A DNA stretch of 64,000 nt. It comes from a virus (taxonomy: Duplodnaviria; Caudoviricetes). The notes beneath the pieces were generated by a model that did not search any database, had not been told where the DNA came from, and saw nothing but the letters and a program-made list of their open reading frames with translations. The stretch is from positions 1-64,000 of IMG/VR virus record IMGVR_UViG_3300037991_005043; one strand, 5' to 3'. Of this stretch, positions 3,621 through 38,555 are shown piece by piece. The stretch's first letter is position 1. Every line of letters starts with the position of its first letter. A program made the position numbers and the translations under genes.

Positions 3621-5273
3621 TTGGCGGAAGGAAGGAGAAGATTTTCAGTTGGAAATCTCTTTAGAAGAAGCACACCAAAACCTAACGATAGACAAATCTA
3701 TGCTATGGGAATACAGGAGCGTCAAAATAATTACATGATGACCGCCCCTATCATTTACTCAATAGTTCAACAGTCTGTAATTACAAGAACATGTATTACT
3801 CAACTCAAGCAGGAGATATTTAGAAGAGGCTACATTTGGGAGAAAGCCTATGAAGCAAGGTGTAATAATTGTGGAAAAGAACATCAAAGACCTGTATCTG
3901 TTTGCTCTAGATGTGGTTCGGAGGACTTGAAAAAACCTGACCCAAAACAACTACAGTTCGCTGAAAGGTTCTTAGAGCAGTATGTCAATAAGTCCGAGCA
4001 GTTGTTCATAGATGTTCTCAAGGAACTTGAGGATGATTTGAACATCATGGATGATGCTTACATTGTATTAGTTAAAGAATACTTCTTAGATGGAAATGGT
4101 TCTATTCGTATGCATAGAATAAAAGAATTGTATAGGGGCGACCCTGTTTCAATGTTTATCTATGCTGATGAAGATGGAACTAGAGGAACTAGAGGCTTTA
4201 CCTGTATTAATCATAGAAATCATCTAGTCAAAGAACCTCACATGAAATGTGAAGATTGTGGTTCTAATATGTTCCCTGTTCATTATGTAAATAGAGCACA
4301 TGGGGAGGACCAGTATTTTATTGAGGGAGAAGTATTGCACTTTAGTAAATATAATCCTACTAGATTGTATGGTGTTTCGCCTATATTGACTCTTTACAAT
4401 TATATTATGACTTTAATCGCTATGGAGAGTTACATTCAATCATCCTATACTAAGAGTAGAATGCCTAGAGGTTTGCTAACTGTTCAAACTAGAAATCTAG
4501 ATAGCATGAGAAGTTTTTGGAGAGCAACTAAAGAAAAGTTAGAGCAAGACCCACACTTTATTCCTATCATGGGTGTAGAAAGTGAAAGTGGTAAAGGTTC
4601 TGTAGAATGGATTAAGTTTATGGATAGTCTAAAGGAAATGGATTATGTTTCTGTTAAAGATGACTTAAGAGATAGAATATCTGCTTTCTATGGAGTAAGT
4701 AAAGTGTTTATGGCTGATAATACTACAAGTGGCGGATTAAATAATGAGGGTATGCAAATTCTTGTTACTAATAGAGCAGTTGAATCAGCGCAAAAAGTGT
4801 ATAACAACTATGTTTTCCCATTCTTAACAAAACAATTCGGTATAACAGACTGGAACTTAAAACTTCCACCTAGCGAAGAGGAAGATGAAATTGCAGGATT
4901 AAGAAAGAGAGAGATAGAAGTAAATATCGCTGCATCTATAAAGAATCTAGGATTTGAAGTAGATATGGATGAAGATGGTAATTTTACATATGAAAAACCT
5001 GAACCTCAAGAGCCTGAACCCACAACAGAAGAAAAGGGTATGGATATGGATATTGGAATGGAAACTCCTCTAGAAGAACCGATGACTCAAGAGCCTATAC
5101 AAGAAACATCTATGGAGCAAGATATAGAACAAGAACCTACTCCTCAAGAAAATCCTCCCGCCACAAGAAATAAAAGGAGAATGAGCGTAGGACCAGATAA
5201 GAGATTCACAGGATTACCCGAAGATGCAGGAAATCAAAATGTAGATACAAGAAGTGAGAGGAGAATACCATGA
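3621..5273 (+). CDS. Portal protein with two Zn-ribbon-like insertions
   Basis: HK97-type portal motifs (DDLNIMDDAY, EVLHF...LYGVSPI, RDRISAFYGV); CNNC/CSRC and CINH/CEDC; acidic Pro-rich C-tail; TTG start after GGGGG. Confidence 0.9.
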   Translation: MAEGRRRFSVGNLFRRSTPKPNDRQIYAMGIQERQNNYMMTAPIIYSIVQQSVITRTCITQLKQEIFRRGYIWEKAYEARCNNCGKEHQRPVSVCSRCGSEDLKKPDPKQLQFAERFLEQYVNKSEQLFIDVLKELEDDLNIMDDAYIVLVKEYFLDGNGSIRMHRIKELYRGDPVSMFIYADEDGTRGTRGFTCINHRNHLVKEPHMKCEDCGSNMFPVHYVNRAHGEDQYFIEGEVLHFSKYNPTRLYGVSPILTLYNYIMTLIAMESYIQSSYTKSRMPRGLLTVQTRNLDSMRSFWRATKEKLEQDPHFIPIMGVESESGKGSVEWIKFMDSLKEMDYVSVKDDLRDRISAFYGVSKVFMADNTTSGGLNNEGMQILVTNRAVESAQKVYNNYVFPFLTKQFGITDWNLKLPPSEEEDEIAGLRKREIEVNIAASIKNLGFEVDMDEDGNFTYEKPEPQEPEPTTEEKGMDMDIGMETPLEEPMTQEPIQETSMEQDIEQEPTPQENPPATRNKRRMSVGPDKRFTGLPEDAGNQNVDTRSERRIP

Positions 5274-9390: not shown

Positions 9391-11913
9391 GTGTTACTAT
9401 TGAAACTATCTTCTATTGAAAAGGATAAACAAGCAGAAGTAGAGTTAGTTCAATTATTTGAAAAAACTAGAGTAGCATTTTTATCTGCTAGAACAGACCC
9501 TAAAGAATATGGGTCTATGTGGAGAAAGGCAGTAGAAGAAATTAGAAGAGTTAGTGGTAAAACTAATGTCGCTTCTAAAGAAATTAAAAATTATATTCCT
9601 AAAGACCTTTTAGATAATGAAGATTCAGAAAACCCAACCTCTCAAATGGCAGAGGATATCTTTGAAGGAATAAAGATGTTGAGGTATAAATCGGATGCTA
9701 TTGATGACCCTCTAGTTACTAGATTTGGAGAAAAGAATGTAATTGAGGCATTATTAGATTCTCCCGAAGATATGGTAAAGTTTGTTCATTATGCTATTAG
9801 GGCAGATAATAAAACTCTACCAAAGAAGGTTTTTGAAATAAAAGATATGTCTGAGGATTTACTAACTAATGGATTAGAAGGCTTAGATTTAGAAGAAGAG
9901 GATATTGCACTTTATTTAATTGAGCATTATGGCGATGGTAAAGATACAAAAGGTGTTGAGCAAGCCGTAGAGAACGCTTTAGAGATGTTGAAAACATTAT
10001 TCTTTTCTAACTATGATGAAGAAGAATGGGATGAACTTGTTGATATTGAAAAGTCAAATAAATCAGATGAAGAAAAGTCAGTTTCACATTTTGTAATCCC
10101 TAACAAACCAATGTATAGAATTTTCACAATAAAAGATATTGAAGAACTCAAAGGCTTTACTGGTGATTGGATAGTCCAAGAAAAATATAATGGTGTAAGA
10201 GTCCAATTACATAAAATAGATAATAATATCAAAGTTTTCAAGCATGACGGAACTGAAATAACTGATAAGTGTCCTACTCAAGTAAAGGAATTGAAAGAGA
10301 AAAAGTATGGAGATTGTATTCTAGATGCAGAATTAATTCTATTCAAGGGCGAGGATTCTCTTAATAGGACTAAGACTTTAGAGTATTTAGAAAAGAAAGA
10401 TTCTTTTGATGATACTCATATTTTGAGGTGTCATGTTTTTGATATTATGCGACATGATAATATGAATATGATGGAGAGAGAAATGAGAGATAGAATATCT
10501 ACTCTTTTCAATAATTATAGTTCTCATTCTTCTACAGAAATAGCATTCCCGTCTAAGAAAGATACTAGAGAAGCCGATAATATGAAAGACTTAGAGGAAT
10601 ATTCTAAGTCAATATTTAATTTACCTACATCTGAAGGAGTAGTAATAAAAGATGCTACATCTACTTACTATCTAGGAACTAAAAAGAATCCTAAATGGAT
10701 TAAGATGAAGAGGTTTGTAGATTTAGATTTATTAATTACTTCAAAGAAAGGAAATAATTGTGAGTTATCTGTATTAACAAATAAATATTCTGAATATAAT
10801 AAAATGGAAAAAGATGGTAAGCATTACATGAAGGTAGCCAACTTTAGAGTCAAAGAAGATGTAAAAGAAGGCGATATAGTTAGAGTTAAACTAAAATCTA
10901 TTAAGAAAACTAAAGATGGATTTAATTTAGTTATTGATGAAGTAATAGAAATACCCGAAGCAGAAACCCCCGATAAAGATACTACTTTAGAAATATTAGA
11001 AGAATCAGAAGATGCTAAAATAAAATATGACCTAAAAGAATTAGAAAAAGGTATTAGGATTACAGACCACATACACGGAGAAGTAGATTTACTAATAAAG
11101 AGTTCAATGGATGGTTTTGTAATTTATCCTAGTGAACAGAATCTTATGTCTAAGAATGCTTTTGCTGATATTGACCTATGGAAAAAAGAAGCAGAACAGA
11201 TATTTGAAGATAAAAAGGGTAAATTATACACAGTAATATTTGACTTTATAAAAAGTAAAGATAAAGAAGTTACTAGTAAAGAGGTTCATAATTTCTTAAA
11301 GAAAAAGCATAATGATATTTACATGGATATCTTTGGAGGACAACAAAGAAAAATTGAGAATTATATGAGGATGGCTGATGGTATAAATCCTACAAAACCA
11401 AAAGGACAACCTAATCAGACCTTTGTTGATGACCCTTCTAAAATTATGAATATAAAAAAAGAATATAAGACTCCCGAAAAATACAGAGAGGGAAAATTTA
11501 AGATTTACAAAAGAAAAGATGAGAATCTAAATATTAGTATTCAAGTTGGTGATGAAAATTTAAACTGGCTTGTGGATATTGATGATGAAGAAGAAATGTT
11601 TGATTTATTTGGTAAAGGTAAAAAATTCCCTGCTGAGGTTGCTAAAAATATCCAAAGAGAAAAAGTAATTGATGAAGGAGATATTACTTTAGGAGTTCAA
11701 AGGCATGGCTATCATGAATATATTATGAGAGGAAATAAGTTCCAATCTAAATTGCATTTTAGAGTATTACCTGTAAAGGATGAAAAAATGTGGTTAGTGT
11801 GGACTGGATTTAAACAAAAACCATTAGACTCCGATGAAGATGATGGTGTTTGGAATATTTATGAAGATAAATCAGCAGGATTAAGAATTCCTTATGAAAG
11901 CCGTGATTATTAA
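9391..11913 (+). CDS. lig: ATP-dependent DNA ligase (adenylation + OB domains) with N-terminal extension and C-terminal LigD phosphoesterase-like domain
   Basis: Motif I QEKYNG, III ILDAEL, IIIa VFDIM, IV EGVVIK, V WIKMK are all intact. The C-terminal VIDEG...YIMRG.KF..KLHFR...W pattern resembles a degenerate LigD PE domain (inference). Confidence 0.85.
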   Translation: MLLLKLSSIEKDKQAEVELVQLFEKTRVAFLSARTDPKEYGSMWRKAVEEIRRVSGKTNVASKEIKNYIPKDLLDNEDSENPTSQMAEDIFEGIKMLRYKSDAIDDPLVTRFGEKNVIEALLDSPEDMVKFVHYAIRADNKTLPKKVFEIKDMSEDLLTNGLEGLDLEEEDIALYLIEHYGDGKDTKGVEQAVENALEMLKTLFFSNYDEEEWDELVDIEKSNKSDEEKSVSHFVIPNKPMYRIFTIKDIEELKGFTGDWIVQEKYNGVRVQLHKIDNNIKVFKHDGTEITDKCPTQVKELKEKKYGDCILDAELILFKGEDSLNRTKTLEYLEKKDSFDDTHILRCHVFDIMRHDNMNMMEREMRDRISTLFNNYSSHSSTEIAFPSKKDTREADNMKDLEEYSKSIFNLPTSEGVVIKDATSTYYLGTKKNPKWIKMKRFVDLDLLITSKKGNNCELSVLTNKYSEYNKMEKDGKHYMKVANFRVKEDVKEGDIVRVKLKSIKKTKDGFNLVIDEVIEIPEAETPDKDTTLEILEESEDAKIKYDLKELEKGIRITDHIHGEVDLLIKSSMDGFVIYPSEQNLMSKNAFADIDLWKKEAEQIFEDKKGKLYTVIFDFIKSKDKEVTSKEVHNFLKKKHNDIYMDIFGGQQRKIENYMRMADGINPTKPKGQPNQTFVDDPSKIMNIKKEYKTPEKYREGKFKIYKRKDENLNISIQVGDENLNWLVDIDDEEEMFDLFGKGKKFPAEVAKNIQREKVIDEGDITLGVQRHGYHEYIMRGNKFQSKLHFRVLPVKDEKMWLVWTGFKQKPLDSDEDDGVWNIYEDKSAGLRIPYESRDY

Positions 11914-11945: not shown

Positions 11946-13151
11946 ATGACGACTATACTCAAATCATCCGATGGGAATTTCAATATTCTCAAGAGTAGAG
12001 ATGACTTGATGATAGGTGGATATGCTAGTATCGAAATTGTTGATAAGCAAAATGATTTAATCACCTTGAAGGCTTTAGAAGAAGCAGTTACTAAATTTAT
12101 GGATAAAGACCGCTTTAGAAATGTTATGACAAATCATTCTAATGTTCAAGTTGGAGAAGTTGTAAAATCATACAGGGATAAAACTGGTAAATTGTGGAAA
12201 ACAGGAGTAGATGATGTAGGATTCTTTGTTGTTATCAAACTTAGAGATGATATAGAAAAAGCAAAGGAAATTAATAGAGGCATTCGCAAGGGCAACCTTC
12301 GTTCATTTAGTATTGGTGGGCAGGCTTTACAGAAAGTAAAGAAGCGACATCAAGACTTAGGGGAGTATAATGAAATAAGTAAGTTAGAACTCCATGAAGT
12401 TACTATATGTGAAAAAGGTATAAATCCCGAAGCGAAGTTCGATATCTTAAAGCAAGATAAAGGAGAGAATAACATGAGCGACATTGAAAAGGCTATGGAA
12501 GAACTGAACGCACTGATGGATGAGGTAAATACTCTTATCCAAAAGGAAGAAACCGAGAAGATGCCCGAAGCAGAAAAGGGTTCATATATGGATAAAGAGG
12601 ACATGGAAGATACAGAAATGGCTGATACAGAAATGGCTGAGGACAAAGAAGATATGGAATATGCAGATGAAGAAGCAAAAGCATATGTACCAACTGTTGA
12701 TGGTGCTGGTGTAGAAATTGGAGAACCTGCTAACAGAGTAGTTATTAGTGGTGGAAAGCCAACTTCTAACGATATGCCTGTTGTAAAAGCATTCAACAAT
12801 GTAGAGATTTCATCTCTAGATTTAGATGCTTCCACAATTGAAAAAGCATATGAGCAATTTAGAACAGAGCAACTAGAAGCATTGGCTCTAGATAATCTAC
12901 AAAAGACTTTTGAGGCGAGATTTGCAGATGAAATCTCCACAAGAGAAACACAAATTGCAAAGCAAAACTATGATGCACAATCAGAAATTGCAGACTTGAA
13001 GAAGTCATTCAAGGAACTTGCAGATTCTCTAACTGCTAGAGATGATGCAATTATCAAGGCTCAAGAAGAAGCAAGAGCAGAAATTCCTAGTATTGAAGAT
13101 ATCAGTTCTATGTCATGGTCTGATATTCACAAAATGGTAGGGGGGTACTAA
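11946..13151 (+). CDS. HK97-type prohead protease fused to acidic scaffold
   Basis: IGGYAS..VD.QND, NH...VG, LRSFSIGG, L.EVTICE.GINPEA motifs; immediately upstream of MCP. Confidence 0.92.
   Translation: MTTILKSSDGNFNILKSRDDLMIGGYASIEIVDKQNDLITLKALEEAVTKFMDKDRFRNVMTNHSNVQVGEVVKSYRDKTGKLWKTGVDDVGFFVVIKLRDDIEKAKEINRGIRKGNLRSFSIGGQALQKVKKRHQDLGEYNEISKLELHEVTICEKGINPEAKFDILKQDKGENNMSDIEKAMEELNALMDEVNTLIQKEETEKMPEAEKGSYMDKEDMEDTEMADTEMAEDKEDMEYADEEAKAYVPTVDGAGVEIGEPANRVVISGGKPTSNDMPVVKAFNNVEISSLDLDASTIEKAYEQFRTEQLEALALDNLQKTFEARFADEISTRETQIAKQNYDAQSEIADLKKSFKELADSLTARDDAIIKAQEEARAEIPSIEDISSMSWSDIHKMVGGY
12474..13151 (+). CDS. Nested in-frame scaffold protein (internal start)
   Basis: AGGAGA RBS at 12461-12466, 7 nt before an in-frame ATG (MSDIEKAMEE) right after the protease domain; analogous to lambda C/Nu3. 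Confidence 0.6.
   Translation: MSDIEKAMEELNALMDEVNTLIQKEETEKMPEAEKGSYMDKEDMEDTEMADTEMAEDKEDMEYADEEAKAYVPTVDGAGVEIGEPANRVVISGGKPTSNDMPVVKAFNNVEISSLDLDASTIEKAYEQFRTEQLEALALDNLQKTFEARFADEISTRETQIAKQNYDAQSEIADLKKSFKELADSLTARDDAIIKAQEEARAEIPSIEDISSMSWSDIHKMVGGY
12609..12638 (+). repeat. Perfect 15-bp tandem duplication (DTEMA x2)
   Basis: GATACAGAAATGGCT twice. Confidence 0.9.
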
Positions 13152-13153
13152 AC

Positions 13154-14494
13154 ATGTCAGGATATATTAACACAATTGCAGACCTAGAAGCACAAACATA
13201 CGGAATTAATACAGTTGGTGGAAACGCACTTTTGAAACAATCGGGTGCTATCGCTGGACTTCACACAGGACACGATACATCTCTAGGTGTAGGTAGTGGA
13301 ACTACCGCAGCATCAGATTTGGGTTCACTATACAATGTTGTTTATGGGCAGAAAGTTTGGTCTATGCTAAACAGAGAATGTAATGCTCTATCTATGATTT
13401 CAAAAAGACCATACACATCTAGCGGTTGGAGAGTTCTAAAATCTAGACCTGCTGGTGGTAGCGGTAATACTTTTGGAGTTGCTACAAGTGGAACACTAAA
13501 TGCTGCATTGTTAGGTGCAGATGCTCCTAGAGCAGATGCTATTGGTGGAGTACCAGAAAATGCAGGGCTTTCTACTGCGGCTGATGGTCTAGGACCAATT
13601 GCTCCAACATATGCTCAACTTTTCCAATCACCTAAGATAGTTGCACATCAATTTGATTTCTCTGAATTGGCTATGGAAATGGCTCAAATTGACGATGGTA
13701 TCGGTGATATTAGAGCACAAATGAGAGAAGATATGGGTAAGCACCACTCAGAAACACAGAACAAAATGCTAGTAATGCCTCTAGAGCATTATGGTGAAAA
13801 TTCTGCTATGCCTCATATTGAAAGAAACTATACTTCTCTATTGAAGATAGTTTCTAGCAGAGCAGAATTGTTGGCTATTGATGGTGGAGTTATTGCTACA
13901 GATACAACAAGTGCATCTAACAATTTGGGTAAGATATTTGGTAGTGAGAGATTCAGTGCTGCTTCTTTCCTAGATGCAGAAGTTGATTTTGGTAGTGGAT
14001 ATGCAGCAGGTGATGTTAGAAGTCTAACTCTAACTATCCTAAATAATCTAATTAGAAACCTAAGAACTGCTGGTGGTTCACCAAAGGTTATCCTAACTGG
14101 ATATGATACACTACAAGCAATTTCTGATTTGCTACAATCTCAAGAAAGGTTCATGGATAGAAAAGAAATAGTTCCTACTGTAAATGGTGTAAGAGGAGTT
14201 AAAGGTCAAGAAGTTGGATTTAGAGTTTCTACTTACTACGACATCCCTATGATTCCTGTTAAGGATATGCCTTCTACAACAAGTGCTTCAACAAGCATTT
14301 CTGATATGCTATTCTTAGATACAGACCATATGTGGCTATCTGTTATGAAGCCAACTCAATACTTTGAAGATGGTATTAGCAACGGAAACCCATTCGGTGT
14401 TGGAACACTAGGCAACAGGGCTATGTATAGAACTATTGGTGAAATCGGTTGTTCCTTCTTTAAGGGTCAAGGCAAGATTACAAACCTACAATGA
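13154..14494 (+). CDS. Major capsid protein (HK97 fold)
   Basis: 446 aa after protease; YGQKVWSMLN.E.NAL....K.P...SGWR and LFLDTD...KPTQYFE, typical of halo-/magrovirus MCPs. Confidence 0.9.
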   Translation: MSGYINTIADLEAQTYGINTVGGNALLKQSGAIAGLHTGHDTSLGVGSGTTAASDLGSLYNVVYGQKVWSMLNRECNALSMISKRPYTSSGWRVLKSRPAGGSGNTFGVATSGTLNAALLGADAPRADAIGGVPENAGLSTAADGLGPIAPTYAQLFQSPKIVAHQFDFSELAMEMAQIDDGIGDIRAQMREDMGKHHSETQNKMLVMPLEHYGENSAMPHIERNYTSLLKIVSSRAELLAIDGGVIATDTTSASNNLGKIFGSERFSAASFLDAEVDFGSGYAAGDVRSLTLTILNNLIRNLRTAGGSPKVILTGYDTLQAISDLLQSQERFMDRKEIVPTVNGVRGVKGQEVGFRVSTYYDIPMIPVKDMPSTTSASTSISDMLFLDTDHMWLSVMKPTQYFEDGISNGNPFGVGTLGNRAMYRTIGEIGCSFFKGQGKITNLQ

Positions 14495-15743: not shown

Positions 15744-16160
15744 ATGGCTGCACTTGATAATGCGACTAGACTAGTAATGACTATACTTTTTGTGGGAACA
15801 GTTAGCGGTGCTAATGTTTTCTTTTACGCTAAGTATGGTTCTAATTTTCCATACACACCTATGGCTCATGCCGTATTATTTGGATTAATGACAGTAGGTA
15901 GTATCATGGTAGTAAAAGCCATGTTCGATTTATTCTTAAATGATAAAATTGAATTGTGGCTATTAGATAGAAAGATAGATGCTTTTTGGAGTAGAAAGAA
16001 AAGAGATTCGGAACAATATTCTAAAATGCAAGAAAGTGCAAAAACTATCGGGATGCCCTTTAATCAATCTCTTCCTATTCAAAATAACTCTAAAACACCC
16101 GTACCCATTAATTCTGGTGAGGCAGAAATTAGTAATGAATTCTTAATCGGACTACAGTAG
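15744..16160 (+). CDS. Membrane protein, two predicted TM helices
   Basis: LVMTILFVGTVSGANVFFY and AVLFGLMTVGSIMVVKAMF hydrophobic segments; GAGGT RBS. Confidence 0.8.
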   Translation: MAALDNATRLVMTILFVGTVSGANVFFYAKYGSNFPYTPMAHAVLFGLMTVGSIMVVKAMFDLFLNDKIELWLLDRKIDAFWSRKKRDSEQYSKMQESAKTIGMPFNQSLPIQNNSKTPVPINSGEAEISNEFLIGLQ

Positions 16161-16169
16161 GTGGTTTAG

Positions 16170-16385
16170 ATGTTAAGCGACATTATGGGTATGTCGGATA
16201 GCGACTATATGTATAATCAAAGTAGGGCGCATTCAGCAGACCTACTATTTCTTAAGATGAGAGCATGGTTTTGGGGAACCACTTCTACACTTATAGCCCT
16301 ACTTTTAGGTAACATTGGTGGAGTCTTTGATATTAATATCATGGGCTGGATAATAGACACTATTACGGGGCTATGGGGTCATTGA
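16170..16385 (+). CDS. Small membrane protein
   Basis: AWFWGTTSTLIALLLGNIGGVF...IMGWII hydrophobic stretch; GGTGG RBS. Confidence 0.75.
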   Translation: MLSDIMGMSDSDYMYNQSRAHSADLLFLKMRAWFWGTTSTLIALLLGNIGGVFDINIMGWIIDTITGLWGH

Positions 16386-16386
16386 T

Positions 16387-17046
16387 ATGTCATTAATGAC
16401 TGGTTTTGCTATTCTTGTAGGTGAAGCAGTATTAGGAATATACAAAAAACTACACGCAATTAATTTTGGAATATATGGGGCTACTATGGTAGGTAAAACT
16501 ACTTTAAATCATCAACTTAGAACTAGGGGAGAAGTTCATCAGATTAATGAAAGAACTGTAGGATTACATAGACCATCTAGAAAAAATGTAAAAATAGATG
16601 GAGAAACTAATACTATTAGATGCTCGGATGTTGGAGGGGAAGCGATTTACTGGAAAGAATGGGCTAAAGATATGCAACTTAGAAAAGTTAAGTATGTCAT
16701 ATTTATGATAGACCATAGACATTTAGATAATACTTCTAATTTAGACCATCAGTTAGCATGGAAGTTTCTAGTAGATACTATTGTATCTGATACTTTACCT
16801 ACTGGTAGAAAAAAGAAAGACAAGGATTATCCTATGGCGGTAGGTATTTGGGCTAACAAATATGATATTTGGGGAGAAAAATATCCAACCGATGACATAG
16901 AAAAACATGAAATATTTGAACCTTTTAAGTATGGAATGAGGAAGTTAAACGAGAAGGGAATACCTTGCTTCAAATATATTGTATCGGCAAAATCTGACCC
17001 CGAAATGGTATATCGTGGAGTAATGACTATGATTAAGGATTACTGA
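16387..17046 (+). CDS. Arf/Sar-like small GTPase (Ras superfamily) with N-terminal hydrophobic helix
   Basis: G1 GATMVGKT, G2 RTVG, G3 DVGGE, switch-II W, VIFMID, G4 ANKYD, G5 SAK. Confidence 0.88.
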   Translation: MSLMTGFAILVGEAVLGIYKKLHAINFGIYGATMVGKTTLNHQLRTRGEVHQINERTVGLHRPSRKNVKIDGETNTIRCSDVGGEAIYWKEWAKDMQLRKVKYVIFMIDHRHLDNTSNLDHQLAWKFLVDTIVSDTLPTGRKKKDKDYPMAVGIWANKYDIWGEKYPTDDIEKHEIFEPFKYGMRKLNEKGIPCFKYIVSAKSDPEMVYRGVMTMIKDY

Positions 17047-17051
17047 TTATT

Positions 17052-17300
17052 ATGTGGGAAAATGTTCTAAAAGGTAAAGTTCCTAAAAAACTTAGGGCAG
17101 AAATAGAAAATAAATTACCTCAAATAGAAATAGTTTCATTTCAGCAGACTAAGGGAGGACATAAGTTATTAGAATTATTTAATACTGAAACCAATGAACG
17201 GGGAAAAATTTCAGTTTCTTCTAGTCCTAAATCTAAAGGAAAATATCACTTAGTTATTCAAGACATAAAAAAGAAATTTAAAATCGGGAGAGAAATATAA
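17052..17300 (+). CDS. HicA-like (dsRBD-fold) small protein carrying a WxxVLK tag
   Basis: MWENVLK start; TKGGH...ISVSSSP......IQDI pattern of phage HicA-like proteins. Confidence 0.55.
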   Translation: MWENVLKGKVPKKLRAEIENKLPQIEIVSFQQTKGGHKLLELFNTETNERGKISVSSSPKSKGKYHLVIQDIKKKFKIGREI

Positions 17301-17995
17301 TGTATCAACAACCAAACCTAATAGGAACACAACCAATACAACCAACCTTTAACCAACTACCTTCTGCTTTCTTACCCCCATTAGAAAGGGCTAGGTCAGC
17401 AGGTCAAGTAGAAGAATATCGCTATCAATCAATTAAACCAAAGAAGCAACTTAAAGAACTTAGAAAAGTTCTATTACCTGAGAAAAAGAAATTTTTAATA
17501 TTCAAATATGGTAAGAAGTTTGACATAAAAGATAGGTGTATTATTTGTGGAACTCAGCATGTTTGGGATGCTGGTGATGCACTAAGACCACCTATTCCTC
17601 TTACAGAAGTTACTAAAGGCAGACCAATGAGAGGAACTTATTGTCCTAGACACGCATCGCATTTTAAACAACATGAGATGTTAGAAGAAAAAATAATGGC
17701 TGAAAAACATGGTTTAGAGTTCAATGCTTACAAACCTAGAATACCTAAAGTTTTAAAATCAGCACCTTTAAAAAATCTAAGTAAAGCAGATGTTACTTCA
17801 TTAATGGCTTTAGGTTGGTATATTGTTCCCCCTGCTCAAGAGAAAGAAACTCCTAATGATGAAGCATATAGATTAATTACTGAAATTAATTTAGCAACAG
17901 AAAGATTAAATTATTTAGTGGGCAACACAGGAGTATCAGTAGCAGACCCTAATGCTACCACGCAAGAAAAAAAGGTGATTAAAAATGCCGAGTAA
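17300..17995 (+). CDS. Hypothetical protein with putative Zn finger
   Basis: CIICG...YCPRH; Gln/Pro-rich N-terminus. Confidence 0.75.
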   Translation: MYQQPNLIGTQPIQPTFNQLPSAFLPPLERARSAGQVEEYRYQSIKPKKQLKELRKVLLPEKKKFLIFKYGKKFDIKDRCIICGTQHVWDAGDALRPPIPLTEVTKGRPMRGTYCPRHASHFKQHEMLEEKIMAEKHGLEFNAYKPRIPKVLKSAPLKNLSKADVTSLMALGWYIVPPAQEKETPNDEAYRLITEINLATERLNYLVGNTGVSVADPNATTQEKKVIKNAE

Positions 17996-18623
17996 TAGAA
18001 CAATAGTAAATACAATTACCGCACAACAGGATGCTAATTTTAAGACTGTAAATAATCTACTTTCTCTACAAGATAACCATGTAGAAGAGTTTTTCCAATA
18101 TCACGGTGAAGATTTTTTAAGTGCTATTGAAAAACTAATGGAGGATGTAACTAAAAGAACAGTTTCTCAAATGCTTTCTAAATTACAACTTTCGGGTGAT
18201 GGAACTACTTTCAAAGTTAATCCTGACTCTCTTAGAGAATATGAAAGAATAACACAAGAGAATATTGAGTTAGATATTAAAGAAGTTTTATCTTCTGCTC
18301 TTAATCAAGAAGTTATTAATCAAAGAAAGTTGGCTAAACAACAATATCTTGAATCACAAGGATTCGGTAATCCTATGGGAAGTCAAGGAGTACAACAAGC
18401 GCAAGGTGGATATGGGCAAGCACAACAAATGTATGGGCAGGGATATAATGCAATACAGAATGGTAGTGGCTATCCTGTTCCTCCTGCTGGTAATGATGGT
18501 TATGGTCGCCCATATTGGATAGACCCAAATAACGGACAAATGAGTTATGAACCACCAACAGGCGGATTACATCTTGCTGAAAAAGCACAGAAAATAGCGG
18601 CTTGGGGCAAATGGTTAATGTGA
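17985..18623 (+). CDS. Helical protein with Gly/Gln-rich linker, WW-like motif and C-terminal amphipathic helix
   Basis: GRPYWIDPNNGQMSYEPP; ends KIAAWGKWLM; GGTGA RBS. Confidence 0.75.
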   Translation: MPSNRTIVNTITAQQDANFKTVNNLLSLQDNHVEEFFQYHGEDFLSAIEKLMEDVTKRTVSQMLSKLQLSGDGTTFKVNPDSLREYERITQENIELDIKEVLSSALNQEVINQRKLAKQQYLESQGFGNPMGSQGVQQAQGGYGQAQQMYGQGYNAIQNGSGYPVPPAGNDGYGRPYWIDPNNGQMSYEPPTGGLHLAEKAQKIAAWGKWLM

Positions 18624-18633
18624 AGGTGATTTT

Positions 18634-21189
18634 TTGGTAGCCTTTACTCTCCCTAAAGTTGATGGTTCTAATAGAGTAATAGATGAAAATACTCTAAAAG
18701 ATTCAGGTGAGATGAATAATATATTAAAACAAGAGTTTCTAAATTTATTGAAAGATAAAACAGTAGGGATTTCTAAAGGAAAAGAATTTGTAAATAATCT
18801 GTTTAATAACTATATGGAATGGGGAGAATCTGTAGGGAGCGATTCAGACAGAAAACAACTAAGGAAAGATATTAGTAAAGCATATTTTGATGCTTTAGAA
18901 GATACTACATACAATGACCTTATTGAAAAACAAGTCTTCAAAGGTGGCTTACAGGTAGTTTCTGAATTAGTTAAGGGTAAAAAAGCAGAATCTTATTTTA
19001 AAGACGGCTTAGATAGCCTACTTATGGATGAATATAAGAAGAAATTAAATGATGTTATTGATGCTTATTCTAGAGCAGGAGAAACATTGTTGGAGAATGC
19101 TAAGTGGAGAGCAAAGGCTAGTAAAGAATTCATAGAAGAAACTAAGAATTTTTTAGATGAAAAATCATATGATGTTATTGCGATTAAAAATGACAATAGA
19201 AAAAGCCCCTTACAGAATAAAATAGACCCAGTTCTTGTTGTTAAATTTAAAGAGGATGATACCATAGGTAGGTTATCCTTTAAATCAAAAGGTGATTTAG
19301 AAAAGGATTTGAAACCCCTATTTAATAACTCAGATATGAAAAAACTAGCAAAAACAAAAAATGACATTTTTGATGATAAATCAGAATATTATGAACATGA
19401 AGTTGTTACTGTTGATAGTCCTAAATCTTTCAATTTAGGCTCTAAACTTCAATACGGTATTGACATAGACTTTGAGCAAATAAAAGGATATTCTTTTTCT
19501 GAGTTTAAAAAGGATTTACTAAAGTTAAGAGAAGAAAAATACGGAGGTAGGAATGTAATAGAAATACCTATTTTCGCACATCGCTATCTTTTGGGAGATA
19601 ACAATATTGAAAAGTTACAACAAAATATCTCAAAATTAATTAAAAAGACATATAACACTCTTACTGCTGATGTTACATCCAATACTAATGATGTTCATAA
19701 TTTATTATTTGAGATTCAACTAGGTGGTAGTTTTTCTGAAAAGAAAAAAGGTGTTCTAAGTGGTATAGGCTCTAGTAAAGAATTTGATAGAATCTTAGAA
19801 GGAATAAAACCAGAAGAAGGAGAAGAAGATACTAGACAAATTGCTCTAAGAGAAAAGAGAAAGGCTAGTAAAGAAGGAAAAGAGAAATTAAAAACGGTAG
19901 AAAAAGATGCTAAAGAAATTATTAAGAAAATAGATAAGGCTTTGAAAGACTTAAATGATGATGGTTTATTTAGGCTACAACAAGTTAATTTGATTAAAGA
20001 TAAATTGAATAGAATGGTTAGAAGGGCTAATACTTCTTCTAAACAACAAGAACCTTTAGATGAAAATGATTTACTACCTTTGTTTGTTTTAGAAGAGGCT
20101 AGATTAGTTATTGATGGAATAAAACTAGTTGAGAAAGAGATTAAGAATATACTTAAGAAAGAACAAGTTAAAAATTTAAATTCTATAATTTTGACTACTC
20201 CTACCGATGAAAAGGATGAAAAGAAAGAAGAAATATCTACTGCACTAGATAATGCTTTTAAGAAAATATTAAACTATGATGTTAAGAGAAAAGGCTATCT
20301 TGACAAATATATTACTGATGGATTAACTCCGACTGAAGCCAGTATTAAATTAGAGAATTCTAAAAAGATAGCAGAAAAAATATACGGTAAGGATATCTTT
20401 GAAGATGCTAATAAAATAAAGTCTAAAATTAAGAGAGAAACTACCAGCAATAATGCTAGAAAGTTTATAATCAGTTCATCTAAAAAAGGAATACAACCCA
20501 AAGAATTGACTATTATTGTTGATTCTAGCACAGGAAAAAAAGCACCTAATTCCGCTAAGAAAGTAGGTGATGGTGTATTTATAGTGCCTAAGAAGAAAAT
20601 AACTCAAGAGGTTGCTCGTTTATTATCAAAAAGATTATTCGGTAATAGTGATGATTTAAAGGAAGATTATTCTAGAGGTGCTACTGTAATATTTTCTGAA
20701 GAGGGAGCATTACCTATAGATTTAGTTAAAGATGAATTGAATTTGGATTCTTACAAAGGAGCATTTAAGACACCTTCTAAATCATTAGATAATAGAAGTA
20801 TTCAGATTCCTAAAGATATGTCTAGAACAGACTTTGAAAAATCTCTTGAGGGAAAAAAAGAATTACAAAGTAGTCTGCCTGTTTTTGAAGAAGATTCAGA
20901 TGAAAAGGTATTCAATATCAGTATTCAAATTTTACCTAAGAAGAAGGCAGAATATACAATTGAGCCTAAAAAAGCAACTGCTGGAACAGAAGCGGAAGAA
21001 ACCGAATTTACATATTTAGATGAGAAGGGTAAGATGTCAGATAAGAAAAGAAAAAGAACTGGTAGTAAAACTAGAGTCTTGACTACTCTAAACGCTTCCG
21101 CTAGACAGAAAGCGAGTTCTCAAATAGATTTATCTATAGATTTCATTACTCTACTTTTGAACAAGTTTAGAATTATAAGGAGAGGATAA
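18634..21189 (+). CDS. Large charged hypothetical protein
   Basis: 851 aa open frame; TTG after GGTGA; no motif recognised. Confidence 0.75.
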   Translation: MVAFTLPKVDGSNRVIDENTLKDSGEMNNILKQEFLNLLKDKTVGISKGKEFVNNLFNNYMEWGESVGSDSDRKQLRKDISKAYFDALEDTTYNDLIEKQVFKGGLQVVSELVKGKKAESYFKDGLDSLLMDEYKKKLNDVIDAYSRAGETLLENAKWRAKASKEFIEETKNFLDEKSYDVIAIKNDNRKSPLQNKIDPVLVVKFKEDDTIGRLSFKSKGDLEKDLKPLFNNSDMKKLAKTKNDIFDDKSEYYEHEVVTVDSPKSFNLGSKLQYGIDIDFEQIKGYSFSEFKKDLLKLREEKYGGRNVIEIPIFAHRYLLGDNNIEKLQQNISKLIKKTYNTLTADVTSNTNDVHNLLFEIQLGGSFSEKKKGVLSGIGSSKEFDRILEGIKPEEGEEDTRQIALREKRKASKEGKEKLKTVEKDAKEIIKKIDKALKDLNDDGLFRLQQVNLIKDKLNRMVRRANTSSKQQEPLDENDLLPLFVLEEARLVIDGIKLVEKEIKNILKKEQVKNLNSIILTTPTDEKDEKKEEISTALDNAFKKILNYDVKRKGYLDKYITDGLTPTEASIKLENSKKIAEKIYGKDIFEDANKIKSKIKRETTSNNARKFIISSSKKGIQPKELTIIVDSSTGKKAPNSAKKVGDGVFIVPKKKITQEVARLLSKRLFGNSDDLKEDYSRGATVIFSEEGALPIDLVKDELNLDSYKGAFKTPSKSLDNRSIQIPKDMSRTDFEKSLEGKKELQSSLPVFEEDSDEKVFNISIQILPKKKAEYTIEPKKATAGTEAEETEFTYLDEKGKMSDKKRKRTGSKTRVLTTLNASARQKASSQIDLSIDFITLLLNKFRIIRRG

Positions 21190-24071: not shown

Positions 24072-25607
24072 ATGGCAAATAATGAAGTATTTTTAGGTAG
24101 CGGTGCAACGATGACTCTAGTTCCAGAACTAGATTTCCATATTGAACCCGAAACAACTCCTGCATCAGCACAAACTACTGTTCAGTTAGATACTGCAAAT
24201 CAAGCCCATTTTAGACTAGTTACAAATATGTATGTAGGATGCACTTTGGAATTATACAACTCTTCGGATGAATTACAATCTACTCACACAGTTACTTCTA
24301 ACACTAATGACACATTTACATTTACACCTGCTTTGGGAGGAGCAGGAGCATACTTTACACTAAAGGCATATGGCGCACCATGTCCTGCACCAAAAACAGG
24401 TTCTATTGCTAGACTAAATGCTGACAATTGGTTAGGATTAGTAGAGTCTGCAACTTTCCCTAATTTAGAAGTTGAAATGAAGCAGATGAATCTACAAATT
24501 GGTGGAACTAGAAACTATACATACCAATACAAGGGTATTGAAACTGCTAGTGGTGGAAATATTTCTCTAGTTTCAAATCATGTTGGTTGGTTATATTATT
24601 TCTTAGGTAGATGCACTACTCTAAATCCTTCTGCTGATGTGGATGCTAATCCTGACCCATCTAATGTTCACACTATGGCTAGTGGTGCTGATGATGGTAA
24701 ATTCTTATTAGATACAACTCATATTGAAACTGGTCCATTTGTTTATAGAATTTTAGATACTGGAAAAATAGTTCCACCTCTTGCACCTGCTGATGATACT
24801 TTAACAAATATTAACAAATTTACAGTTCCTACTTCTTCTGAAAAGATTGACTATGTATTTCAAGAGGCTAACAATGCAAGCCTGCCTTCTTTCTCTTTAG
24901 AATATACATTATCTAAATTATCTTCTACAAACACCTATCAAACTGAAACAGGTTCAGCAAGTGAATCTGAAAACTTTGTTAGAATTGCTAGAGGAAATAG
25001 AATAAATACTCTAACATTAACTGCTAATGAAAATGAAGAAGTTAAAATGACTCTTGACTTAAACACATCAGCAGTTACAGAACTTCCTCAAGGAGAAGCA
25101 TATGAGGCTAGAAGAGGAGTTACGGATGATGCAAATTTCATGAACAGAAAATCTGTTGATGCTTCCCATCTAGAACCATTCTTTTTCTATGACGGAACAG
25201 TTAAACTATATGGTAATGAGTTCCTAAAAATTACTAATCTAACTCTAACTATGAACAATAATATACAAGATAAGAGATTCATTGGTGTTGCTGATAGAGG
25301 AATTAAAGAGGGTATTCCTTCACAAAGAACATATGAATTATCTTTTACTGCTCTAGTAACTGACGACCAATTATATGAGGAACTTCTAAGTTCTACAGAA
25401 AGCACCGCTAGCGCAGATATTTCATTGACCTTCACAAAGGGAAGCAACAGTAATGAAACATTTACCCTAACTTTTGAGGACTATTTCACCTCTACTAACA
25501 CATGGACTGTTCCTGACGACAAGGGAGTAGTTACGGCAGAAGCAACTCTTACACCTAGAACTTTGAACGCTTGTTCAGCATCAAGTCACTGGATTCTACA
25601 GGGGTGA
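24072..25607 (+). CDS. Major tail tube protein (siphovirus-type) with insertions
   Basis: INTLTLTANE.EEVKMTL, ITNLTLTMNNNI, RTYELSF..LVTD tube-protein strands; no sheath gene. Confidence 0.8.
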   Translation: MANNEVFLGSGATMTLVPELDFHIEPETTPASAQTTVQLDTANQAHFRLVTNMYVGCTLELYNSSDELQSTHTVTSNTNDTFTFTPALGGAGAYFTLKAYGAPCPAPKTGSIARLNADNWLGLVESATFPNLEVEMKQMNLQIGGTRNYTYQYKGIETASGGNISLVSNHVGWLYYFLGRCTTLNPSADVDANPDPSNVHTMASGADDGKFLLDTTHIETGPFVYRILDTGKIVPPLAPADDTLTNINKFTVPTSSEKIDYVFQEANNASLPSFSLEYTLSKLSSTNTYQTETGSASESENFVRIARGNRINTLTLTANENEEVKMTLDLNTSAVTELPQGEAYEARRGVTDDANFMNRKSVDASHLEPFFFYDGTVKLYGNEFLKITNLTLTMNNNIQDKRFIGVADRGIKEGIPSQRTYELSFTALVTDDQLYEELLSSTESTASADISLTFTKGSNSNETFTLTFEDYFTSTNTWTVPDDKGVVTAEATLTPRTLNACSASSHWILQG

Positions 25608-26162: not shown

Positions 26163-26389
26163 TTAGGGGAGCACTCAAAGGAAAAGAGAGCGACCCTAAG
26201 ACAGTTTCATTAATCATGGTATATACATTAGCAAAGGCACTTGCTATATCTCCGTTAGAGATATATAAAATGCCTGTTTCCCTAGTTAAAGACCTACTAC
26301 AAGTTCATCTAACATTTGAGGAGTTGCAAGCAGAAGAAATGGAAAAAAGTAGGAAAAAACTAGAGAGGAATAGTAATGTCAGACGATGA
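26150..26389 (+). other. Programmed -1 frameshift (A AAA AAC) giving a gpGT-like extension
   Basis: Heptamer at 26150-26156; -1 frame open for 79 codons (…YTLAKALAISPLEIYKMP…DLLQV…) and overlapping the TMP start. Confidence 0.85.
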
Positions 26390-28244
26390 TAGCACAATAA
26401 AAATTACTTCCGATTTAGCAAAACTAGAACATTTTGTAGATAGTAATTCTTTCAAATTTAAAGGATTGAGTAAAAAAATTATTGAAACTGCTGATGCTAC
26501 TAGTCAAGCGGGTAAAGCATGGACTACATTTAGTAGGCTATCATCTGGAACTCCTATATGGGCTGCCCAAAATAAAATAAGGGCATACTTAGAGATTCTA
26601 GGTGGGTTTGAAAAGCGTTCAGTTGAAAACACTGAGGCTTTAGCAAAACAAAGAGAAGAAATAATGAGTCAAGTTAGAGTCTATAATGACCTAACTGCGA
26701 ATGTTGAGGAGTTTCAACATGTAATAAATAATACTACGCCTGTTGGTATGGATTTAGAACAATTTACAGAAATGAAAGAGAGAATTGAGGCAACTATAGA
26801 AAGCACAGATACATATCAAAAAATGTTATTGATGACTGGCGATGCTGAATTTGCTAGAAGTAAGGCTATAGATAAAATGAAGGCATCTCAAGAAGAAGCA
26901 CTTAAGGCTAAACAAAAATTTACTAAAGAATTACAGAATGAATATGCCTTTGATACTAAGAGAATAAAACAGGCTAGAGAGTTAGCAGAAGCAAAAGCAA
27001 AAGAACAGGGTCTTAGTAAAAAGGAAATTAAAAGAGCAGGAGATACTGCTACAAAAAAGGCTAGAGCAACAATTAGAAGCCAACAACAATCGGCAATTGG
27101 CAGTACATTAGAAATGGGTGGAGAACTTAGAACTAAACTTACTGATATTGCTAAACCTTTAGCCATTCTAAAGGGTATTGCTACCCCAATAGAAACAACT
27201 TCTAATCTTTTATTTAAGATAGAGTCAGCAGGAAGAAAATTCCAAAAACGCTCTATGGAATTTACTAATAGATTACAACCTATTGTAAGTATGGCTTTCA
27301 AATACTTTATTGCCGCTATTCTAGTTATAGGTGCTATTTTCTTATTAGTTGCATATGCTAAAGAATTTGCTTCTCAATTTGAGCAGTTTGGTATCTTAGA
27401 TGACCTGAAAAAATATGGAGAAGATTTACTTATATTCGGTCAAAGTGTAATAGATACTGTAATGGCGTTTGTTAATGGAGGTTTTGATGAAGGTTTGGCT
27501 AAATTAGGACCACTATTAGACCAAGCCCTAGATTTGATGTTAGACGGTATGGAAATACTGATTAAAGTTGGATGGGTTGCTATTCTAGCAGGATTACAAT
27601 TGTTAGTTGATTTTGTAGGAAGAATGTTTAATGAGCCTGAATTTAGAGAAACAGTGTTTAATATTTTACTAAAAGTTGGTAAAATAATTTTAATAGCCTT
27701 CTTTGTTAAGTATCTAATATCTCAAGTATTGTTATTGATAGGAATATATGCATTACCTATTATGATTGGGGTAATTATTATTGCTGGAATGTATGCAGTT
27801 GCTAAATATCTAGCAGAAGAATATGCAGAGCAATTTGAAAAAGTAGTATATTACTTAGAAACCCCGTTTAGATTTTGGTCGGGAGTTTTCAAAGGAATAA
27901 GAGATTATGCTGAATGGGTAGTTGATACACTAAGAAATTTTGTGACTAGAGATGGTAGTATGCGTAGTGCGATTATGGGTCGTGCAAGTGGTGGAATGGT
28001 AAATAATTCTAATCCTACATTAGTTGGAGAAAATGGACCAGAATTAGTTAAACTACCTCAAGGTTCTAGAGTATTTAATCATCAAGTTACTAAGAATATG
28101 ACAGGTGGAACTACTATCAATAACTACTTTACAATAAACGCTAAGGACACATCCGATAGCGAAATGAGAAGAATTGCTGATAAACTATCTGGAATGATTA
28201 ATCAAAAGATAAATAGAAGCACTAACAGTAGGATGTATGGGTGA
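26376..28244 (+). CDS. Tape measure protein
   Basis: 622 aa helical; several TM segments; C-terminal ASGG.V.....LVGENGPEL motif. Confidence 0.88.
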   Translation: MSDDDSTIKITSDLAKLEHFVDSNSFKFKGLSKKIIETADATSQAGKAWTTFSRLSSGTPIWAAQNKIRAYLEILGGFEKRSVENTEALAKQREEIMSQVRVYNDLTANVEEFQHVINNTTPVGMDLEQFTEMKERIEATIESTDTYQKMLLMTGDAEFARSKAIDKMKASQEEALKAKQKFTKELQNEYAFDTKRIKQARELAEAKAKEQGLSKKEIKRAGDTATKKARATIRSQQQSAIGSTLEMGGELRTKLTDIAKPLAILKGIATPIETTSNLLFKIESAGRKFQKRSMEFTNRLQPIVSMAFKYFIAAILVIGAIFLLVAYAKEFASQFEQFGILDDLKKYGEDLLIFGQSVIDTVMAFVNGGFDEGLAKLGPLLDQALDLMLDGMEILIKVGWVAILAGLQLLVDFVGRMFNEPEFRETVFNILLKVGKIILIAFFVKYLISQVLLLIGIYALPIMIGVIIIAGMYAVAKYLAEEYAEQFEKVVYYLETPFRFWSGVFKGIRDYAEWVVDTLRNFVTRDGSMRSAIMGRASGGMVNNSNPTLVGENGPELVKLPQGSRVFNHQVTKNMTGGTTINNYFTINAKDTSDSEMRRIADKLSGMINQKINRSTNSRMYG

Positions 28245-38423: not shown

Positions 38424-38435
38424 TTGTGTGATATT

Positions 38436-38555
38436 ATGTCTTTTAGACATATACAACAAGTTGGAATACTGCTTGCTATATTAATAGTTACTATTCCGAT
38501 TATAGTTTTTGATAAAATACAAGAAATATGCATTTCTTTATTTTTTACAAAATAA
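38436..38555 (+). CDS. 39-aa single-TM peptide (not in track)
   Basis: MSFRHIQQVGILLAILIVTIPIIVFDKIQEICISLFFTK; weak GTGTGA RBS. Confidence 0.4.
   Translation: MSFRHIQQVGILLAILIVTIPIIVFDKIQEICISLFFTK

Follow-up and report, generated by a model that had tools for sequence, protein, structure and literature searches.

A conserved gene cassette built around a small GTPase

The 64,000-nucleotide (nt) window analysed here, positions 1 to 64,000 of the IMG/VR record IMGVR_UViG_3300037991_005043, is the left 64 kb of an 88-kb magrovirus genome (~95% complete) and carries at 15744–18623 of its plus strand a compact cassette centred on a genuine small GTPase. This cassette is a real conserved module, whose gene order recurs in ~150 loci, and the sequence makes it a candidate for how magroviruses act on, and perhaps exit through, the host membrane. 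Two small proteins with transmembrane (TM) segments, A138 (15744–16160) and B71 (16170–16385), precede the GTPase of 219 amino acids (aa) (16387–17046), which is followed by E231 (17300–17995), a protein with conserved Cys and His residues, and by the Gln/Gly-rich F212 (17985–18623). The run of five coupled open reading frames (ORFs) described in the first-pass annotation of this DNA was found at these positions with tight junctions, the stop codon of B71 and the ATG of the GTPase being 1 nt apart and E231 and F212 overlapping by 11 nt, although a sixth ORF, encoding D82 (82 aa; 17052–17300, plus strand) and overlapping that of E231 by 1 nt, had been omitted from the run.

The relatives of the GTPase in IMG/VR comprise 290 close ones, at least 78% identical to the window protein (lineage G1), and 127 of a second type, ~36% identical to it (lineage G2). 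ORFs were called in 151 loci and assigned to cassette slots by position and length class. The order in lineage G1 is a 2-TM protein of ~130 aa (slot A), a 1-TM protein of 71–72 aa (slot B), the GTPase, E (~220 aa) and F (~215 aa), and the slots are occupied in 78 of 80 (A), 80 of 80 (B) and 57 of 57 loci (E and F alike). Lineage G2 has a TM protein of 170–220 aa, a TM protein of 78–100 aa, the GTPase, E (~300–345 aa), F (~195–230 aa) and a trailing 2-TM protein of ~80–90 aa, with A and B in 65/65 loci, E and F in 70/70 and the trailing gene in 65/70. Profile comparison between the lineages with hhalign gave 99.9% for the GTPase, 94.4% for E (E-value 9e-8 over 115 columns) and 61.9% for F (E-value 8e-5), mismatched pairs remaining mostly below 2% with one at 11%. 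The GTPase, E and F are homologous across the two lineages by this comparison, whereas the counterparts of A and B match by position and topology only.

In the window, the capsid gene precedes the cassette by 1.25 kb and the tail-tube gene comes after it. The lineage G2 records are complete genomes of 103–118 kb with the same magrovirus-type capsid protein, in which ~20 kb separate the cassette from the capsid gene and ~8 kb from the large terminase gene, both located downstream of it; since its genome position differs between the lineages, the cassette has moved as a unit. Conservation of the neighbours together with the GTPase had been set beforehand as a test of the proposal, and the same order was indeed found in these two deeply diverged lineages. 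The five lineage G1 genes are under purifying selection, with ratios of non-synonymous to synonymous substitution rates (dN/dS) of 0.09–0.29 (0.24 for A138 and 0.09 for B71), values that are rough because dS is near saturation. This selection, together with the gene order recurring in the loci compared, speaks for more than chance.

A full six-gene cassette was also seen on the 59.4-kb ENA contig k141_745542 (loci L082, L169 and L170), with hhalign values of 93–99.8% to the lineage G2 families and an inserted extra gene for a poly-Asp acidic protein. Its neighbours on this archaeal element are two glycosyltransferases, a TFIIB-like gene and a resolvase (serine recombinase), and the element also encodes a number of small TM proteins. 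PHROGs scans of ten larger ORFs within 35 kb, together with precomputed Pfam labels, revealed neither capsid nor portal nor terminase, and the element may be a different kind of virus or a plasmid. Searches with tblastn gave no match for the lineage G1 and G2 GTPases among GenBank phages (E-values up to 1) and none for the lineage G1 GTPase among PLSDB plasmids, near-identical records possibly lying outside both searches. A scan of genome contigs yielded a single match and no host homologue of the GTPase. The match, locus L168 on the 12.2-kb contig NZMJ01000024.1 from a Maricaulis metagenome-assembled genome bin, encodes a GTPase 82% identical to that of the window and is almost certainly a mis-binned magrovirus fragment.

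Sequence motifs, fold and kinship of the GTPase

The motifs of the GTPase were placed on an alignment (A1) of 22 GTPase sequences with 26–84% identity. The P-loop (G1 motif) is GATMVGKT at residues 31–38 (16477–16500), with Gly31, Gly36, Lys37, Thr38 and Thr39 nearly invariant in the alignment (GKTT). It is followed by RTVG at residues 56–59, which contains the Thr of the G2 motif at position 57, and by the G3 motif and switch II (16627–16662), formed by DVGGE (residues 81–85, with Asp81 and Gly84 invariant) and Trp92 at +7 from the catalytic position. IFMID occupies residues 105–109, the G4 motif NKYD residues 157–160 (16855–16866, with Asn157, Lys158 and Asp160 nearly invariant) and the G5 motif SAK residues 200–202. 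All five G motifs of a small GTPase are therefore present and in order, and each of the Arf-style motifs quoted in the first-pass annotation (RTVG, DVGGE, the switch II Trp, IFMID, NKYD and SAK) could be located in the protein.

A closer look at the catalytic position, residue 85, bears out the replacement of the Arf Gln by Glu reported in the same annotation and extends it to the whole lineage, Glu being found in 81 of 81 lineage G1 loci. Lineage G2 is mixed at this position (Gln in 47 loci, Glu in 16, Asp in 6 and His in 1), and the Trp at +7 is present in all 151 loci of both lineages. A catalytic Glu fixed in one lineage suggests an altered hydrolysis chemistry. The AlphaFold2 model of the GTPase (predicted local distance difference test, pLDDT, 89; predicted template modelling score, pTM, 0.85) shows a canonical six-stranded G domain after a helix at residues 3–22.

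Kinship was examined with sequence profiles and with structure. The Pfam scores of the window GTPase are all below threshold (MMR_HSR1 18.8 bits, Roc 17.9 and Arf 17.7), and NCBIfam returned only the generic small_GTP domain, also below its cut-off. Two distant members of the viral family exceed the Pfam Arf cut-off, P0168 with 57.2 bits (Arf being clearly the best model) and P0173 with 27.2 bits; P0168, which forms the best bridge to the Pfam model, stands as a singleton on a contig of 1.5 kb, and for another member, P0131, no relative was found in IMG/VR. Matches to Pfam SRPRB were weak, below cut-off and limited to distant members of the viral family. The family profile retrieved solved small GTPases from the PDB at E-values of 6e-9 to 1e-6 (Rab33B, 8OUN, KRas, EngA and Arl3), among which 8OUN is presumably GerdArfR1, an Arf-related protein of Asgard archaea. 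The structure preprint on GerdArfR1 (bioRxiv 10.1101/2024.02.28.582541) contains this accession twice. The best single-sequence match in the PDB was Sar1b, in an alignment that starts within the N-terminal helix.

At the structural level, Foldseek gave a probability of 1.00 to Rab, Ras and Arf alike, with the best TM-score (0.81) for ARF6, and the nearest non-viral clusters of the ESM Atlas, compared by language-model features and shape, belong to the Arf family (bacterial "Arf-like" proteins, ARFRP1, ARL5B and ARL13A). The combination of GKTT, DxGG and Trp at +7, a hallmark of the Arf/Sar/SR-beta/G-alpha group, is present in the viral GTPase, and among known proteins Arf6, SR-beta, Sar1 and Asgard ArfR stand closest to it. 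The residue after DxGG, Gln in Arf and His in Sar1, is neither of these in the window protein. The label Arf/Sar/SR-beta-like is used here and the protein is not placed within the Arf family proper, because its Pfam scores are sub-threshold, Glu replaces the catalytic Gln and the Pfam Arf model is unspecific (see below). The earlier description of an Arf-like GTPase holds as regards the nearest kin, without extending to strict membership of the Arf family.

Membrane cues in the GTPase, A138 and B71

The GTPase begins with a hydrophobic helix (residues 1–22; 16387–16452) that is followed by two Lys residues. Residues 1–19 have a Kyte-Doolittle value of 1.66, which is TM-grade, and a low hydrophobic moment (0.20–0.28); the helix at residues 3–22 was modelled at low confidence. 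An N-terminal helix of ~20 residues is conserved in both lineages, that of lineage G2 being rich in Gly, Ala, Ser and Leu, with a moment of 0.31, and followed by KPRR. The hydrophobic N-helix of the first-pass annotation was recovered as a hydrophobic and conserved element, but with its low moment the lineage G1 helix looks more like an anchor than like a classic amphipathic helix. A second cue is the polybasic loop RKKKDK (residues 141–146; 16807–16824), which belongs to an insert between helix 3 and strand 5. This insert, placed before the G4 motif, is basic in every member of the GTPase family, with a net charge of +1 to +4 in lineage G1 and +5 to +9 in lineage G2.

The two proteins encoded upstream appear holin-like in build. 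A138 contains two TM-grade segments (residues 10–28 and 43–61; Kyte-Doolittle 1.75 and 1.98) and a charged helical C-terminal tail, and B71, which is highly conserved, contains a single one (residues 41–59; Kyte-Doolittle 1.67). Over the full 88 kb, the late strand has just two further hydrophobic ORFs, the tape measure gene and an ORF of 43 aa described at the end of this report.

Partner proteins E231 and F212 and the accessory ORF D82

E231 consists of a basic N-terminal region followed by Cys80, Cys83, Cys115 and His118, and its family shows the conserved signature GRxMRGTYCPxH (alignment A2). It is plausible that the four residues form a CCCH zinc site. This gives the Zn-finger protein of the first-pass annotation a candidate metal site, although the fold itself was poorly modelled (pLDDT 60). 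F212 is composed of a conserved helical N-terminal half, a low-complexity middle rich in Gln, Gly and Tyr, and a strongly conserved C-terminal helix with the consensus ending AAWxKWLM, in keeping with the helical, GQ-rich protein with a terminal KIAAWGKWLM helix that had been noted before. Neither protein matched a family in Pfam, PHROGs, NCBIfam or PADLOC, and PADLOC returned nothing for the cassette proteins beyond a 12-bit, chance-level match of F212. A WW-like motif considered in F212 was rejected (Pfam WW, E-value 0.14, far below the cut-off). Prediction of a complex between the GTPase and E231, both given as alignments, scored 0.00 in a run without controls and speaks neither for nor against binding.

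D82 lies outside the core cassette, in a hotspot for insertions that separates the GTPase gene from that of E: 42 of the 57 lineage G1 loci have no insert at this place, and the 254–576 nt inserted in the other 15 carry ORFs of varying size (82, 99, 154, 175 or 189 aa). D82 itself had no match in Pfam, PHROGs or PADLOC; a HicA-like reading of it found no support in Pfam, NCBIfam or PADLOC at E-values up to 1. Its N-terminus, MWENVLK, is a start of the W-x-x-[IV]-L-K type. Many lineage G2 proteins encoded upstream of the cassette start with N-P-F-[ND]-Q-A-W-x-L-L-K or a near variant (L162 121–8533, L149 3817–6997 and L118 5–9109). This motif parallels the W-x-x-I-L-K tag of the window, and the tag is therefore conserved across magrovirus lineages.

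Comparison with known systems

The viral GTPase is ~15–20% identical to proteins of the Arf family (Arf1, Arf6, Arl and Sar1, and Asgard ArfR such as GerdArfR1, 8OUN). It differs from them in the Glu that stands for the catalytic Gln of Arf or His of Sar1, in two inserts, one of them polybasic, and in an N-terminal helix that is longer, TM-grade and of low moment and lacks the Gly2 myristoylation site. An N-terminal amphipathic helix that binds the membrane in the GTP state is a defining feature of the Arf family, and ArfR has been reported almost solely from Asgard archaea (bioRxiv 10.1101/2024.02.28.582541), whereas the viral GTPase is encoded by a virus of Thermoplasmatota-type archaea. The family is also marked by an interswitch toggle, a shift of register by two residues between its GDP and GTP forms; the model of the viral GTPase represents a single conformation. 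With respect to SR-beta, the viral cassette lacks a recognised partner with an SRX domain and a signal recognition particle (SRP) context; an N-terminal anchor of the SR-beta type is plausible in the lineage G1 GTPase and weak in that of lineage G2.

The functionally closest described system is ArvA/ArvB/ArvC (OapA/B/C) of Haloferax. ArvA (HVO_3014) is an Arf-like small GTPase that drives the formation of extracellular vesicles, acting with a DUF2073 protein and the Zn-ribbon protein ArvC, both encoded downstream (ArvB next to the GTPase, ArvC no more than two genes away); it has an N-terminal helix and carries the Pfam label MMR_HSR1, with an HHsearch link to Arf (PMC10927574). The window GTPase shares with ArvA scores on MMR_HSR1 as well as Arf and a hydrophobic or amphipathic N-terminal helix, and as in the arv operon, a gene for a Cys-rich, Zn-type protein is placed shortly downstream. 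The parallel between the arv operon and the viral cassette is suggestive. OapB (PF09846) and OapC (PF09845) were absent across the 88-kb genome at E-values up to 10, both being found in the Haloferax control; D82 and E231 gave no match to OapB or OapC in Pfam, and E231 none to OapC at E-values up to 1. The membrane proteins and the Gln/Gly-rich protein of the viral cassette are without counterpart in the arv operon.

Holin-endolysin cassettes offer another comparison. A138 and B71 resemble their components in being small membrane proteins with one or two TM segments in a compact late cassette that would act as infection ends, and A138 recalls holins in its two TM segments and charged tail. Unlike those cassettes, this one has no adjacent endolysin and no match to a holin family in Pfam or PHROGs, although holins are so diverse that the lack of a sequence match does not tell against them. 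We know of no phage lysis cassette with a GTPase, a Cys/His protein or a Gln/Gly-rich protein.

Proposed role in membrane remodelling and alternatives

The reading we favour, which we regard as quite possible though short of probable, is that of a self-contained late cassette of magroviruses, arranged around a membrane-attached GTPase of the Arf/Sar/SR-beta kind and acting in membrane remodelling or egress. It is preferred because a membrane-seeking helix and a basic patch are combined with co-translated membrane proteins, two soluble partners and a position on the late strand. It is further supported by the absence of any known lysis gene among the scanned plus-strand proteins: no holin, endolysin or other lysis family was found by Pfam and PHROGs in those tested (the minus strand and some small ORFs lay outside the scan), in agreement with the first-pass annotation, which had recognised neither a holin nor an endolysin. 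Membrane attachment, partner binding, timing and a role in egress we infer from sequence. In this scenario A and B would insert into the host cytoplasmic membrane, and the GTPase would sit on the same membrane through its hydrophobic N-helix and polybasic loop. In its GTP state it would recruit or release E, with its Cys/His residues, and F, with its Gln/Gly-rich region and C-terminal amphipathic helix, and the cassette proteins together would deform or breach the membrane late in infection and in this way control virion release. The cassette might function as a GTP-gated equivalent of a holin system, with A and B in the holin-like part; alternatively it might be a coat-recruiting switch of the Arf/Sar type, with E and F recruited to bend the membrane. 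The more detailed version, in which the GTP-loaded GTPase recruits the Cys/His adaptor and a coat-like or condensate-forming F to patches marked by A and B and so opens or buds the membrane, we consider doubtful.

Several observations weigh against an egress module driven by an Arf-like GTPase. The window GTPase lies below the cut-off of the Pfam Arf model PF00025 (22.3 bits) and scores slightly better with MMR_HSR1. In six-frame searches the same model also gave scores above its cut-off in 13 of 14 prokaryote genomes used as controls, in which true Arfs are not expected; on its own, such a score is weak evidence of Arf membership. Rab, Ras and G-alpha follow within 1–2 Z units in structure comparison, and the assignment to Arf is thus not decisive. 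The N-helix of lineage G2 is only moderately hydrophobic, homology of A and B between the lineages was not detected (hhalign 3–4%), and A, B, E and F matched no known holin, coat, GTPase-activating protein, guanine nucleotide exchange factor or lysis family. Lastly, the cassette lies within the morphogenesis block, a setting that fits a role in assembly equally well.

Such a role would make the cassette a membrane-anchored organiser, a checkpoint or platform by which capsid or tail assembly or DNA packaging is tethered or timed at the host membrane. It would explain why both lineages have the cassette on the strand for morphogenesis, flanked by the capsid and tail-tube genes in lineage G1 and followed in lineage G2 by an HNH-like gene, genes for unassigned large proteins and the large terminase gene. 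It would also suit the Gln/Gly/Tyr-rich composition of F, which is that of scaffold-like or condensate-forming proteins. However, no tailed virus is known to depend on a GTPase for its assembly and PHROGs has no related GTPase family, the shift of the intact cassette with respect to the structural genes speaks against a link to one particular assembly step, and on k141_745542 the cassette stands with no Caudoviricetes hallmark among the ORFs and labels surveyed there; we therefore hold this explanation to be rather unlikely. Manipulation of the host membrane apart from release, be it superinfection exclusion, the block of a host membrane process or the formation of ArvABC-like decoy or transport vesicles, draws on the vesicle formation driven by ArvA with its downstream Zn-ribbon protein ArvC (PMC10927574), which the viral Cys/His gene after the GTPase recalls, and on the dual MMR_HSR1/Arf Pfam signal shared with ArvA. 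The missing OapB and OapC, the lack of a match to a PADLOC defence family and a late-strand position that is unusual for exclusion genes make it improbable.

A targeting receptor like SR-beta, in which the GTPase would dock viral proteins, A and B included, for membrane insertion or localisation, appears very unlikely, since no partner with an SRX or longin-like domain came to light (E and F lacking a usable fold model), the matches to SRPRB are sub-threshold and the N-helix of lineage G2 falls short of the hydrophobicity of a TM anchor. To our knowledge, archaea are without SR-beta, which counts against such a receptor as well. The undetectable homology of A and B between the lineages and the insertion slot that breaks the run could also point to a chance neighbourhood, with the GTPase as a stand-alone accessory gene among unrelated ORFs. 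This explanation is extremely improbable and chance adjacency is largely refuted by synteny: the order persists in the ~150 loci even where the genome position changes and recurs in a third kind of element, the genes overlap or abut, and E and F co-vary with the GTPase across lineages.

Novelty and significance

The magrovirus and archaeal-virus literature searched makes no mention of a GTPase, and the cassette is not described in it. The literature on Poseidoniales, GTPases and viruses, judged by titles and abstracts, yielded only work on Asgard archaea and eukaryogenesis and none on magroviruses, although the automatic annotation of JGI already labels some relatives "GTPase SAR1 family protein". 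The sole precedent found for Arf-like genes on archaeal mobile elements comes from Asgard archaea (PMC11529989). The main players in the egress of head-tailed archaeal viruses were described in a 2024 review as "still completely uncharacterized" (PMC10791045), and magroviruses are reported to be the third most abundant group of marine viruses (PMC5434244). Their hosts, the marine group II archaea, are abundant but uncultured, and the five-gene cassette offers a concrete set for expression and assay.

With the GTPase described here, Arf-like GTPases become known from viruses of archaea other than Asgard, which bears on the spread of such membrane switches before or alongside eukaryogenesis. Should the cassette be a coat switch of the Arf/Sar type, it would supply the egress machinery still missing for tailed archaeal viruses, it would place the logic of a GTPase plus coat outside eukaryotes and Asgard archaea, and mobile elements would be able to carry such modules between archaeal lineages. 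Even with a role in assembly or exclusion, it would be, according to the literature searched, the first module based on a small GTPase to be described in a prokaryotic tailed virus.

Genome setting and neighbouring genes

The window GTPase is 78% identical to gp088, annotated as a hypothetical protein, of Poseidoniales virus YSH_150918, the exemplar of Aoguangviridae in the order Magrovirales (PMC10768690). The plus strand up to ~38.4 kb forms the morphogenesis block, in which scans with Pfam and PHROGs identified, all on this strand, the portal (3621–5273), an ATP-dependent DNA ligase (9391–11913), the prohead protease (11946–13151), the HK97-type capsid protein (13154–14494), the tail tube (24072–25607) and the tape measure (26376–28244).

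The gene that follows F (18634–21189 in the window) encodes a Lys/Glu-rich protein whose length varies from 377 to 826 aa among close lineage G1 relatives, while the product of the next gene keeps a steady length of 430–444 aa in lineage G1 loci; the Lys/Glu-rich protein is perhaps a length-variable, ruler- or scaffold-like component. The 43-aa ORF mentioned above (38424–38555, plus strand) begins immediately behind the last large late-strand gene; it has two strongly hydrophobic stretches and could encode a holin-like peptide.

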